Of a stretch of 64,000 bases of DNA, positions 27,001-30,000 are shown one piece after another (position 1 is the stretch's first letter; each line of letters begins with the position of its first letter). Made by a program: the position numbers. Origin of the DNA: a virus. Taxonomy: Duplodnaviria > Heunggongvirae > Uroviricota > Caudoviricetes. The DNA lies in the IMG/VR virus record IMGVR_UViG_2880378312_000006; one strand, given 5' to 3'.

Positions 27001-30000
27001 GAGATGATCGGGGCATCAGGATTTTTTCCCATGGTTTCAAGGTCGATCATTAGATGGTCACACGTCCTGCTGGTGGATGTGATAATGCGATGACCGTTCA
27101 CCGTAATTAAGGGATCTGCCGTCTCGCCAGTTTCACTATCGCTGGCGTGGTCCTGAGCGCTGCCAGCATTCTCCTTGTGTGGATGTTCAGCGCCTTCCAT
27201 TTTCTCCGAATCGTCTTCCTGAACTTCAACCAGGTTCTTGTCATCGAATGTTTCCTGGTATGTTGCGTCGCCCATCACCGCGCCACAATCAGGGCAGTTG
27301 CCGCCACTCCTCTGACCGCAGGCGGTGCAGATCTTTTCCGGTTCCTGTTGCACTACTGGTTCAGGTTGTTTCGTTTCTGGCTCGTTTTGTTGCGTATTTG
27401 GGCTGTTCTGTTCCGCTTTCTGGTCGTTCTGTTCCGTTTCTGGCTGATTCTGGTACACAGAATCGCGGGTCTGGATCCCCTTAATCCATTTCGGATCATT
27501 CGGGTCGCTAATCCCTTCAACAAATTCTCCGCGAGAGGCAGCCAGTAATTTGTCTGCATCGACAGGATTTTGGGGCGGAATGTTTTTCCGGGCTTCATGG
27601 AGTTCTGCCCGCAGTTTCTGATATTTCGCATCAACAGAATTTATCTGTGGCTGAGCATCCATCGACTGCGTGTCCTGATTATGTTCAGTTGTATCCGGTT
27701 CCACTGCTTCAGTCGTTGCCTGTTCATCTGCCATTGCGCCAGATGGCTGCGGTTTTTCTTCATCATCCTGTTTTCCTTCTTTTGTTACACGCTGCGGCAT
27801 TGGAGCAGAGGAGCGACCGCAGGCAATATCCACGATTTCTGGATCAGGGTTGGCATGGTCGGTTTCGGTCAGTACTTTGTTCAGATATTCGGTAACACGG
27901 TGGGGAGTAGCCTCGATACCAATTGGTGCTTCTTTCACGGACGCAACCACTATCGCGCGGGAATAATCCAGGTGACCAGGCATGGCGATGAATTTGTCAC
28001 GAAAAACAGAAAAGGGCGGCTTATTCTCTGAAACGATTTCTTCAATGCGTTTGGCGTGTGCCGGATGTGGATTGTAAATATCGATGTCCATTGAACGGGC
28101 CAGAACGCCAGCGGCAACGTCACGTTCCACTGACGCATCATCGTGGACAAAACCTTCACCGCGATCGGTAAGAATTCCTCCGCCAGCATTAGCGCCGGAT
28201 GGCGTGCGGCTGATGCGTAAAACACGATTTCCTTTCATCCACTCTTTTGTCAGCAGACCTCGATCGGTATAGTCAGCGTCCAGGTATGCTTCGAAAAAAG
28301 CAGTCATTAACCCCAGACTGGAATTAACGGGATTAGGGAAAACTTTGTCTGTGTCGCGTACCAGTTTGTGAAGGTCGCGAATCTCCAGCGGGTCGAGCAG
28401 CTTTGTGTTGTGGGAAATAGCCAGGGCAGTAACAGCAGGCAGTTCTTCAGCTCGTGCGATATGTAATGCCTGAAGTTCTTCCCGTGAAACGTGCGTTACC
28501 GGTTTTTCGCTGCCATGTTGCGCAAGCCAGCGAATGGGCAGTTCCTGACCGGAAATCGGCAGGAGCATATTATCCTCAATCTCAGCCATGTCTTCGCCAT
28601 TGACGTTGGTATTGTCAGTGCTGGCTGGTTTGTCCTGAACTGAGGGGGAAGGCGCTATAAATATCATTGTGATGCCATCTTCTCCGCCTTTTTCATAGCG
28701 GTTGCAGAATTCAGTATCGAACACACCTTCAGGCGGCAGGTCATTAACAATGGGCAAATTCACGCGAACAGGTTTTTTGAAATCCTCTTCGTCAAATCCA
28801 GCATCGTCCATTGCGACAACACCCCGTGATATTGCAACCGATAATTTTTTTGCTGTGCGCCAGTAAAAACCGCCTTTAATCCCAAGGCGTTTTCTGACTT
28901 TGTCATTTTTGGCTTCGTAATACAGTGCAATTTCTTCTTTATCAGTGCTCATTGATAAACCTCATAACTATTTTAAGGTTGTACGAATCCCTGCTATTGC
29001 TGGCATGCTTAATCAACGGGTATGGCGTTAATACGGCTGGCGGGTTATCCAGCCGGTATTTCGTTATTCAGGTACAGCGATACTTTGTTTAACGGGAGAC
29101 ATTCACCGGAAATTTTTTGCTCGTCTCTTGCCTGATGGCAGGATTCTTTACTGGCATAAATTCCGGTAATCACATTCTGTGGCTCACCTGTTATAAGAAA
29201 AACCGTCATCATCAGTGCAAACGCTGAACTCACTGCTGCCCTCCGAAAATGCCAAGTTCAAGAAGGGCAATTCTGGAGAGTATGGAATTATCATTGAGAA
29301 GATAAGGCTCATATTTTCTCATCCTGATGGCGTCTTCAGTAAACTCCCGGTTACTGAGCAGAATACCAATATTAAAACACCCTTCAGACGTATTAACGTT
29401 TGGTAGTGACGTTTCCATTATCGCGTCCTCAACAATGAATTTTGTGATGCGGTGCCTGGTGCCTCCAGGTGACGTTAACCAGTTAACAATTAACGCCGGA
29501 TACAGAGAATCCACCCATAACACTGTTTTTGGTTTTAACTGTTCCGCGTGCGCTCAGCCGCATTCACCACATCACAAAATTCACTTTAAAAAGGGCGGCA
29601 GAGCAGTCACGGAGTAAAACTGATACCGCCAAACGTCACCAGAAAATTGATAACAGAGGGCGTTGCAGCGGGGTTGTCACTTAAGCGTATGGTCAACCTG
29701 ACAACCCGGTGTCCTCAATGGGGAAGGAATAACCCCGCCATACTTACCGCCGCGCCATTTCGCGGAGTGCCACAACCGGAAGCGCACGTTCGAAGAAATC
29801 TAACGACAAGCCTTCTAAGGGAAAGAGCTTCGCCGTACGCTTTCGCGTTATGCACTGACTTTTCAGGGAAATATCCTTTCAGTAAACTGTCAGTACCGGA
29901 TTCTTATCCGTGTCCGGCGCACGACCACACGTGACAGCGTGTTGGTCTCCATTTTTAACCCAGAACCTCAATGGAGGATAAAATGCCAAACAAAAAAAGA

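Follow-up and report, generated by a model that had tools for sequence, protein, structure and literature searches.

A dicBF-type cassette with probable DicF processing duplexes in the leftward operon of a lambdoid prophage

In E. coli K-12, the Qin prophage's dicBF operon is under the control of dicBp, an analogue of lambda PL that is repressed by DicA (PMC10448788). The annotated genome (NC_000913) shows dicA, ydfA, ydfB, ydfC, dicF, dicB, ydfD, ydfE and intQ on one strand, with only the cro-like dicC on the opposite strand, and a 340-nt gap between ydfABC and dicF. The DicF RNA of about 53 nt is generated by RNase III together with RNase E in K-12 and exerts an Hfq-dependent control of ftsZ and other mRNAs (PMC10448788, PMC5069750). 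RNase III cuts about 137 nt upstream of dicF, which leads to a 190-nt precursor, and RNase E cuts at the dicF 5' end; primer extension revealed no internal promoter, the 190-nt precursor was the sole leader-containing species, and terminated and read-through transcripts were both present (PMC10448788). A 72-nt form of DicF has also been published (PMC5069750). PMC7873438 gives the same DicF properties for the EHEC copies taken collectively, and several dicF copies in O157:H7 prophages have been described (PMC5069750; PMC7873438, citing Melson & Kendall 2019).

The window analysed here is a whole stretch of 64,000 nucleotides of viral DNA (IMG/VR record IMGVR_UViG_2880378312_000006), of which 12.9 kb were identical to E. 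coli O157:H7 MB9-1, in a lambdoid prophage at ompW. GenBank 'PPompW' phages showed 93% identity over 94% of the query, and a match was found in 4716 of the 5426 complete E. coli genomes, at a median of 2 places per genome and at 6 places in MB9-1. We consider it very probable that we are dealing with a dicBF module of the standard kind in the PL-type early-leftward operon of an O157:H7 lambdoid prophage at ompW, with DicF cut from a polycistronic RNA. The basis for this in our analysis is sequence identity, family matches, gene order, conservation, a non-coding leader and predicted duplexes. The cassette, its place in a PL-type operon, the long untranslated leader, the RNase III/RNase E processing and the multiplication in O157:H7 are already published; the locus has little weight as a discovery, and its value is a corrected annotation that fixes the coordinates of DicF exactly, delimits the leader and marks duplexes where processing probably occurs.

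DicF and the genes downstream of it

DicF was located on the minus strand at 29593-29645 (53 nt), in a single copy in the 64-kb window. The Rfam model RF00039 matched 29593-29644 (minus strand) over model positions 1-52 of 52 with 76.7 bits (E 3.6e-15; gathering cut-off 48 bits), and the alignment contained no non-canonical pairs. With the first T counted in, 29645-29593 was identical to K-12 dicF at 53 of 53 nt, target-pairing regions included, and the 53-nt match is DicF. The terminator hairpin seen in the Rfam alignment is followed by the T-run TTTTT (29588-29592, minus strand), so that DicF carries the 3' stem-loop and U-run of an intrinsic terminator. The initial annotation, which had called a DicF sRNA and then a T-run on the minus strand at 29586-29644, was right about both elements and one base short at the 5' end, which is 29645. 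A scan of genome contigs with a 17-base DicF core gave 72 matches, mostly chance ones in unrelated phyla. Ten of them passed a DicF identity filter, five being titled E. coli, E. ruysiae, Shigella or Salmonella and the other five being MAG contigs labelled as other taxa.

The next gene, at 29230-29418 (minus strand), codes for a 62-aa protein named as the cell-division inhibitor DicB by PGAP and matching Pfam PF05358 over residues 1-62 of 62 with 115.7 bits (curated cut-off 27 bits); 37 of the 62 residues (60%) are identical to K-12 DicB. Its stop is overlapped by 4 nt by the gene of a ydfD-like DUF1482 protein of 62 aa with a GTG start (29045-29233, minus strand), which gave 53.8 bits with Pfam PF07358 (curated cut-off 25 bits) and 114 bits with phrog_1092. 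Because only 23 of 62 residues (37%) of this protein are identical to K-12 YdfD, its lysis activity is not assured. The DicB and YdfD identities proposed earlier were both supported by Pfam, but the genes do not lie directly downstream of DicF, as had been claimed, since dicB begins 174 nt on, a distance equal to the K-12 spacing.

Leader, spacer and candidate processing sites

The segment upstream of dicF, 29646-29982 (about 338 nt), contained no annotated gene and no gene on the minus strand. The earlier description of about 340 nt of ORF-free DNA at 29645-29982 was therefore correct as to the absence of a gene, with a start at 29646, but the conserved non-coding dicF leader covers only 29646-29923 (minus strand), the counterpart of Qin positions -278 to -1. 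The remaining junction segment of about 59 nt (29924-29982, minus strand) is not homologous to Qin and contains the SD/start region of an opposite-strand ORF; the homology of K-12 and most dicF loci ends upstream of about 29923, and 29924-29982 is peculiar to the prophage type found here. The leader was about 92% identical to that of K-12 over the matched block, the proximal 230 nt or so being nearly identical. In the alignment of 73 homologues, 29790-29646 was about 99-100% invariant, and the RNase E-type 5' junction of DicF, UCAA/UUUUCU, was invariant across homologues. The homologues are 85-100% identical, and in the leader double changes occurred only in a few local hairpins. The stretch 29805-29832 of the leader is a variable patch, and DicF itself does not differ between copies.

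A candidate RNase III duplex was predicted in the RNAalifold consensus at 29773-29851 (minus strand), with arms at 29851-29833 and 29790-29773 that enclose a variable hairpin. Placed by length only, the published 190-nt precursor has its 5' end at about 29782, on the 3' arm of this duplex. The suggestion in the initial annotation that the leader may hold processing sites, to be sought by folding it, is supported by this position and by the K-12 experiments on the nearly identical proximal 230 nt or so (PMC10448788). In the MAFFT alignment of kil-type with dicB-type loci the duplex was misaligned, and the region was taken anew via sequence anchors. The duplex was present in all loci, with two double changes in Rac-SA53 that preserve the pairing and an A to C change in 7 homologues that breaks one pair.

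Between dicF and dicB, a long hairpin spacer of about 150 nt (29434-29585, minus strand) folded with a perfect 21-bp closing stem, 29585-29565 with 29454-29434. In the predicted fold, this stem is probably the RNase III site that yields the 3' end of the 72-nt DicF (about 29574, placed by length). The spacer gave 38.4 bits over the full length of the STnc100 model (RF02076), below the gathering value of 47, and homologous spacers gave 34.4-43.8 bits, all sub-threshold; judged by sequence, it is a relative of STnc100 and not a member.

Taken together, these sites lead us to propose the following course. Transcription would start from a promoter under repressor control, a short way downstream of the cI-type gene, and would pass through the ydfA homologue, a hypothetical gene, the leader of about 280 nt, dicF, the spacer of about 150 nt, dicB, the ydfD homologue, exonuclease, xis and int. 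DicF would have no transcription of its own and would be excised from the polycistronic RNA, with RNase III cleaving the leader duplex about 137 nt upstream to give a precursor of about 190 nt, and RNase E producing the mature 5' end by a cut at the AU-rich junction. Intrinsic termination would set the 3' end of the 53-nt form, and on read-through RNA a cut by RNase III in the stem just downstream would set that of the 72-nt form. Mature DicF would pair, with Hfq, with the host mRNAs ftsZ, xylR, pykA and manX, and with pchA in EHEC; DicB would stop division via MinC, and the YdfD homologue would be the counterpart of a reported lysis protein. The processing sites of the window are equated here with those of K-12 by length and homology, and promoter use, processing and targets are carried over by analogy from K-12 and EHEC.

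Some further roles of the spacer and leader are conceivable, and we regard them as doubtful. RNase III could free the spacer as a third stable RNA of the STnc100/PasD superfamily, or the spacer could be a translation or stability element shared by genes of FtsZ inhibitors; or else the leader of the Qin type could keep DicF inactive, or influence the terminator, until the RNase E cut. Neither the spacer-RNA idea nor the leader-inhibition idea was backed by covariation in the alignments. The kinship of the spacer with STnc100/PasD is a small lead for RNA specialists.

We find it quite unlikely that the leader works as a cis switch. In that model, pairing of 29757-29732 with the terminator's 3' arm would keep DicF sequestered within the 190-nt precursor and serve for anti-termination, and would thereby determine how much terminated DicF is made relative to read-through into dicB. 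In the modelled 190-nt precursor the probability of the terminator hairpin was about 0 and the leader-paired structure was 5.5 kcal/mol more stable, the consensus fold contained the same pairing, and K-12 does have terminated as well as read-through transcripts. However, this long-range pairing falls in invariant columns, with no compensatory changes and only one-sided ones, four of which break pairs, and the z-score of the 190-nt fold was only -2.3. A nearby hairpin, moreover, usually wins during transcription. At the Salmonella dicF locus, whose short leader is unrelated, the terminator forms at p 0.78, and kil-type loci do not have the pairing segment; in this independent test the anti-terminator property was shared by neither the Salmonella nor the kil-type loci.

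It is very improbable that the leader has a further, independent product, be it another small RNA transcribed from a promoter of its own or a small protein. Such a product could be invoked because the proximal 145 nt of the leader equal DicF in invariance and surpass the start of dicB in conservation, because the fold of 29419-29985, leader included, had a z-score of -4.75, and because the window has an opposite-strand ORF of 95 codons. However, no frame was open across the 63 unique homologues, the variable columns were distributed 50/45/43 by phase with no periodicity, and the indels were not multiples of three; on these grounds a small protein in the leader was rejected. The promoter scan of 29646-29982 found no minus-strand promoter-like site, so that an internal dicF promoter was rejected, in agreement with its published absence in K-12, where the 190-nt precursor is the only leader-containing species (PMC10448788). 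An Rfam search of 28900-31400 with E values up to 10 gave nothing within 29646-29982.

Operon order, promoter and repressor

The order repressor, ydfA, leader, dicF, dicB, ydfD and finally int, all co-oriented and with a divergent cro-like gene, was found when ORFs and PGAP calls were compared with NC_000913 and with the phage Tritos, which has the same order and orientation as the window cassette. The first gene of the leftward operon is a ydfA homologue (DUF1391; 30843-30995, minus strand; Pfam PF07151, 102 bits), called by PGAP in the identical strain. Next, where Qin has ydfB/ydfC, comes the gene of a hypothetical protein of 212 aa (30193-30831, minus strand, PGAP coordinates; phrog_2151, 489.6 bits; no Pfam family). 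Beyond the cassette, the rest of the operon (25087-28952) consists, on the minus strand, of an exonuclease VIII-like protein (26508-28952; Pfam Exonuc_VIII and Rv2179c-like), an excisionase (26195-26443) and an integrase (25087-26217), the last two being ORFs with PGAP names. A 69-aa ORF, annotated in the identical strain, opposes the operon at 29983-30192 (plus strand; phrog_4274, 173.7 bits) and could interfere with read-through from PL. The only nearby promoter match was on the plus strand at 29955-29984, overlapping the start codon of this ORF, and is uninformative.

Upstream of the ydfA homologue, a promoter-like site resembling PL and dicBp together with an operator-like motif occupied 31175-31222 (minus strand). 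The site reads TTGACC-17-TAAACT (31203-31175), a 9/12 consensus match of a kind that was no commoner in the scanned region than in shuffles, and its -35 is abutted by the motif (31204-31222). In the intergenic region between cI and cro the motif, GTTTTGAT-N-AAAAC, was also present, at 31925-31943 and 31973-31988. Repressor control of the cassette, which the initial annotation had put forward, is plausible on this shared sequence motif, its function being inferred.

The repressor is a cI-type protein of 212 aa with HTH and S24 peptidase domains (31288-31926, minus strand; Pfam S24 48.5 bits, and HTH_3), which PGAP called only from Met101 onward in the identical strain. It occupies the slot of dicA in Qin and is a different protein. 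The marks of an SOS-cleavable repressor of the LexA/cI type are an S24 domain, a Ser/Lys dyad and a scissile bond that is Ala-Gly or Cys-Gly. The protein aligned to lambda cI residues 25-224 and retained the Ser (ESDSM) and the Lys (IRKL); at the position of the scissile Ala111-Gly112 of lambda cI it has Ala-Ala.

That the cassette moved from a cro-side operon in Qin to the cI/int side, with a new coupling of DicF and DicB to induction, is hardly credible: it is co-oriented here with cI and int, and an S24 domain, absent from DicA, is present in the repressor, but the K-12 annotation already refutes a Qin cassette on the cro-like promoter, as initially supposed, since order and orientation are the same there with dicC as the sole divergent gene, dicBp is a DicA-repressed PL analogue, other phages have the same layout, and a difference limited to repressor type is normal lambdoid mosaicism. 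The supposed contrast with Qin can be dropped.

Comparison with known systems

The standard dicBF module thus resembles first of all the K-12 Qin operon (ydfABC-dicF-dicB-ydfDE), in gene order, in strand relative to repressor and integrase and in having a ydfA homologue first. The 53 nt of DicF are identical, the spacing to dicB is the same 174 nt and the spacer is nearly identical. Because the Qin genes are co-oriented too and dicBp is a PL analogue under DicA, the layout here is the canonical one. Unlike in Qin, ydfB/ydfC are replaced by the 212-aa hypothetical protein and the opposite-strand 69-aa ORF, and the exonuclease, xis and int are intact, whereas ydfE and intQ of Qin are pseudogenes. 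The repressor is of the HTH+S24 cI type, whereas that of Qin is the 135-aa DicA without S24; because of this difference the inducing signals may differ, and this copy may answer other signals than the Qin copy.

The DicF-like element linked to kilR in Rac-type/Stx1 phages has the same leftward-operon slot and shares the upstream duplex as well as a near-identical spacer, which in other phages precedes kilR; the kilR-upstream slot is shared by Rac-SA53, 75/02 Stx, phiSTEC1589 and pPE4. It differs by a divergent terminator-hairpin RNA that reaches only 35-41 bits with the DicF model (cut-off 48), by the missing segment of about 130 nt between duplex and sRNA, and by kilR instead of dicB. With STnc100 (RF02076)/PasD the spacer has in common the stem that closes it, the sequence GGUGAAU and a hairpin with CACCnGGAGGCACCnGGCACC, one compensatory change being seen, but it lies in the early-left operon and not in the late region and is not supported as a separate sRNA. 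Finally, the locus is like the four DicF copies described for EHEC O157:H7 (Balasubramanian et al. 2016, Fig. 9; Melson & Kendall 2019) in belonging to an O157:H7 prophage and in having dicF together with a portion of the dicBF locus.

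DicF, DicB and YdfD and their source prophage

An Rfam scan of the whole window, with the minus strand examined directly over 28500-30600, gave a full-length match to DicF (RF00039) at 29593-29644 (minus strand), with a score of 76.7 bits (E 3.6e-15; gathering score, 48 bits) and all stem pairs canonical. Alignment to K-12 showed that the 53 nt at 29645-29593, preceding T included, are identical to K-12 dicF; TTTTT follows directly at 29592-29588. This sequence is the commonest variant among 131 collected loci, and a mismatch-tolerant search found only one copy in the window. 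DicB (29418-29230, minus strand, 62 aa; Pfam PF05358, 115.7 bits) shares 37 of 62 residues with K-12 DicB, and the YdfD homologue (29233-29045, minus strand, GTG start; DUF1482, 53.8 bits) 23 of 62. Both had been described as lying directly downstream of DicF; they do follow it, but DicB begins 174 nt later, a spacing equal to that of K-12. Upstream, 29646-29982 contains no annotated gene and ends at a 69-aa ORF on the opposite strand (29983-30192). The Rfam, Pfam and K-12 matches, together with this gene-free stretch, therefore confirm what the initial annotation had observed, with slightly corrected coordinates. The cassette is an already known one, in its usual place.

The 938-nt query spanning 29045-29982 matches E. 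coli O157:H7 strain MB9-1 at 100% identity, with zero mismatches over the surrounding 12,938 nt, and the GenBank 'PPompW' phages match 94% of the query at 93% identity. MB9-1 has a partial ompW just past the integrase. The cassette was present, whole or partial, in 4716 of 5426 complete E. coli genomes, at a median of 2 places per genome and at 6 in MB9-1. More than one dicF copy in O157:H7 prophages is described in PMC5069750, and a review (PMC7873438) cites Melson & Kendall 2019 for four dicF copies in EHEC. Elsewhere in the window, both ends (2962-4755 and 61958-63739, plus strand) carry ORFs of 232 and 334 aa, with an ORF of 113 or 109 aa ahead of each; the matching lengths suggest that tail-gene modules are repeated in two prophages lying side by side. 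Two tRNA genes (41322-41394 and 41498-41571, plus strand; Rfam tRNA, 72.5 and 67.3 bits) lie downstream of the early-right genes, and a sok antitoxin RNA (RF01794; 36854-37028, plus strand, 113.5 bits) implies a hok/sok-type toxin-antitoxin locus within the prophage.

The dicF leader and its predicted processing sites

Homology to K-12 and to Tritos, a phage with a Qin-like layout, starts near 29923 (-278 relative to dicF) and is near-perfect from about -230, across dicF and the dicF-dicB spacer, up to the dicB start codon, with a single variable patch at about 29835-29790. Further dicF loci were gathered with a 17-base core pattern from genome contigs, which gave mostly chance matches and a handful of real ones, and from IMG/VR, which gave 120 loci; filtering on DicF identity left 131 copies, about 100 of them distinct. 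The starting point of leader homology in these copies takes one of a few values (about -340, -290, -278 and -207), and in every case the homology extends through dicF into dicB. Over 29790-29646 the 73 full-length homologues are 99-100% invariant, a level equal to that of DicF and higher than that of the dicB start. In the 63 unique leaders no reading frame is open throughout, variable columns are distributed 50/45/43 over the three phases, and lengths differ by numbers other than multiples of three, so the leader is non-coding. It has no Rfam match, even at E up to 10, and the promoter scan found no minus-strand promoter-like site in it.

For K-12, experiments show a 190-nt DicF species with a 5' end cut by RNase III (PMC10448788), a 53-nt form requiring RNase E for its 5' end (PMC10448788; PMC5069750) and a 72-nt form with a 3' end produced by RNase III on read-through RNA (PMC5069750); an internal dicF promoter was not found (PMC10448788). 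Placed by length only, the 5' end of the 190-nt species falls near 29782. In the consensus fold of the homologues, 29851-29833 pairs with 29790-29773 and encloses a variable hairpin, so that 29782 lies on the 3' arm of this duplex. The duplex core AAGCGYACGG/CCGUGCGCUU is kept in every locus, being retained in the divergent Rac-SA53 (a kilR-type phage) through two double changes, and an A to C change in seven sequences breaks one pair. We propose this duplex, with moderate confidence, as a candidate RNase III site. The 3' end of the 72-nt form, also placed by length, falls near 29574, within the perfect 21-bp stem (29585-29565/29454-29434), on its 5' arm; this stem closes the entire spacer in the fold. 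The RNase E junction, UCAA/UUUUCU, does not vary among the 73 full-length homologues. The earlier suggestion of processing sites in the leader was right, but such sites had previously been shown by experiment on the nearly identical K-12 sequence.

A switch based on pairing between leader segment 29757-29732 and the 3' arm of the terminator of DicF is an unsupported idea of low probability. Folding either the entire region or the 190-nt precursor by itself does give this pairing; the terminator hairpin then has a probability near zero, and the leader-paired alternative is 5.5 kcal/mol more stable. But the pairing lies in nearly invariant columns with zero double changes, and the 190-nt fold has a z-score of only -2.3; the segment is missing from kil-type loci, and in Salmonella dicF, which has an unrelated short leader, the terminator forms at p 0.78. 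As to the candidate RNase III duplex, a long duplex resembling it lies about 10 nt 5' of Salmonella enterica dicF (locus L029, 3644-3695, minus strand, 60.6 bits), whose 5' region differs, with GUGAGAGUUGGG in place of UUUCUGGUGACG. Two other records, Aeromonas phage MT713136.1 (249906-250152, 247 nt near the record end, 98% identical to the dicF region) and 'Actinobacillus' phage PP818812.1 (L199; a complete dicA/kil/exoVIII region resembling that of E. coli, in which a DicF-like hairpin is duplicated), may reflect contamination or mis-assigned hosts.

The dicF-dicB spacer, STnc100 and kilR loci

The sequence at 29386-29595 (minus strand), containing the spacer (29434-29585), aligns to the full STnc100 model (RF02076) with 38.4 bits at a relaxed Rfam threshold, the gathering score being 47 bits. 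Homologous spacers in K-12, Rac-SA53 and pPE4 score 34-44 bits; full-model alignments in this range outside the window are at L001 5433-5642, L197 2534-2723 and L199 2758-2942. In a pairwise comparison, the true STnc100 of the window (42344-42516) has the blocks TGGTGAAT and CACCnGGAGGCACCnGGCACC in common with the spacer, with one compensatory hairpin change; the spacer is a relative of STnc100, not a member. The true STnc100 (plus strand, 104.7 bits) belongs to the late region of this prophage, where both tRNA genes precede it and a 616-aa ORF (42653-44503) begins shortly after it.

In Rac-SA53, Shigella phage 75/02 Stx, phiSTEC1589 and pPE4, kilR is preceded by an almost identical spacer, and a divergent terminator hairpin resembling DicF stands upstream of that spacer. 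On the DicF model (cut-off, 48 bits), the hairpins of Rac-SA53 and phiSTEC1589 score 35-41 bits. These loci lack the ~130-nt segment found in Qin-type loci between DicF and the duplex upstream of it. DicF-like RNAs upstream of kilR were seen in Rac-type and Stx1 phages (L197 2490-2544, L198 2670-2720, L196 about 2560-2610), with compensatory stem changes in the hairpins. A 2026 Pas-sRNA preprint ties STnc100 to PasD but mentions neither dicF, dicB or kilR nor the relationship with the spacer.

Operon layout and repressor compared with Qin

The leftward operon lies beyond a cI-type repressor (31926-31288, minus strand; HTH and Peptidase_S24). A promoter-like site at 31203-31175 (minus strand) matches at 9/12 positions in a promoter scan whose matches are no commoner in the scanned region than in shuffled sequence. 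Its -35 is abutted by an operator-like motif (31204-31222, minus strand), repeated at 31925-31943 and 31973-31988 between cI and a P22-type cro; the motif common to both regions supports the proposal that the operon would be under repressor control. The ydfA homologue (30995-30843) and a phrog_2151 hypothetical protein (30831-30193) follow, both on the minus strand, then the 69-aa phrog_4274 ORF on the plus strand and, again on the minus strand, leader, dicF, spacer, dicB, the ydfD homologue, an exonuclease VIII-like protein (28952-26508), xis and int. The phrog_4274 ORF, of unknown function, faces the operon and adjoins the dicF leader upstream, where Qin has ydfC; no promoter was found for it, the sole promoter-like match overlapping its start codon.

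The initial annotation contrasted this arrangement with Qin, the K-12 cryptic prophage, where the cassette was said to be expressed from the cro-like promoter. In the RefSeq annotation of NC_000913, dicC is on one strand and the other carries, in order, dicA, ydfA, ydfB, ydfC, a 340-nt gap, dicF, dicB, ydfD, ydfE, insD7 and intQ, so the cassette is already co-oriented there with a cI-like repressor and the integrase, ORF-free gap included. Ragunathan et al. 2023 (PMC10448788) describe dicBp as resembling lambda PL and repressed by DicA, with DicA and DicC in the roles of CI and Cro, and Tritos, in which DicF is annotated, has the same CI-to-integrase order as the window. The claimed contrast is therefore mistaken, and the layout of the window is the canonical one.

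The repressor is the one real difference from Qin. It has 212 aa, whereas Qin DicA has 135 aa and no peptidase domain, and DicA is described in PMC10448788 as having no cleavage site. The repressor of the window aligns to residues 25-224 of lambda cI and retains both catalytic residues, Ser (ESDSM) and Lys (IRKL), but has Ala-Ala at the position of lambda cI Ala111-Gly112. Cleavage upon SOS induction, and with it the coupling to induction suggested in the initial annotation, is therefore no more than a possibility. Its ORF (31288-31926) is intact; in the sequence-identical MB9-1, PGAP calls only the C-terminal 113 aa, from Met101.
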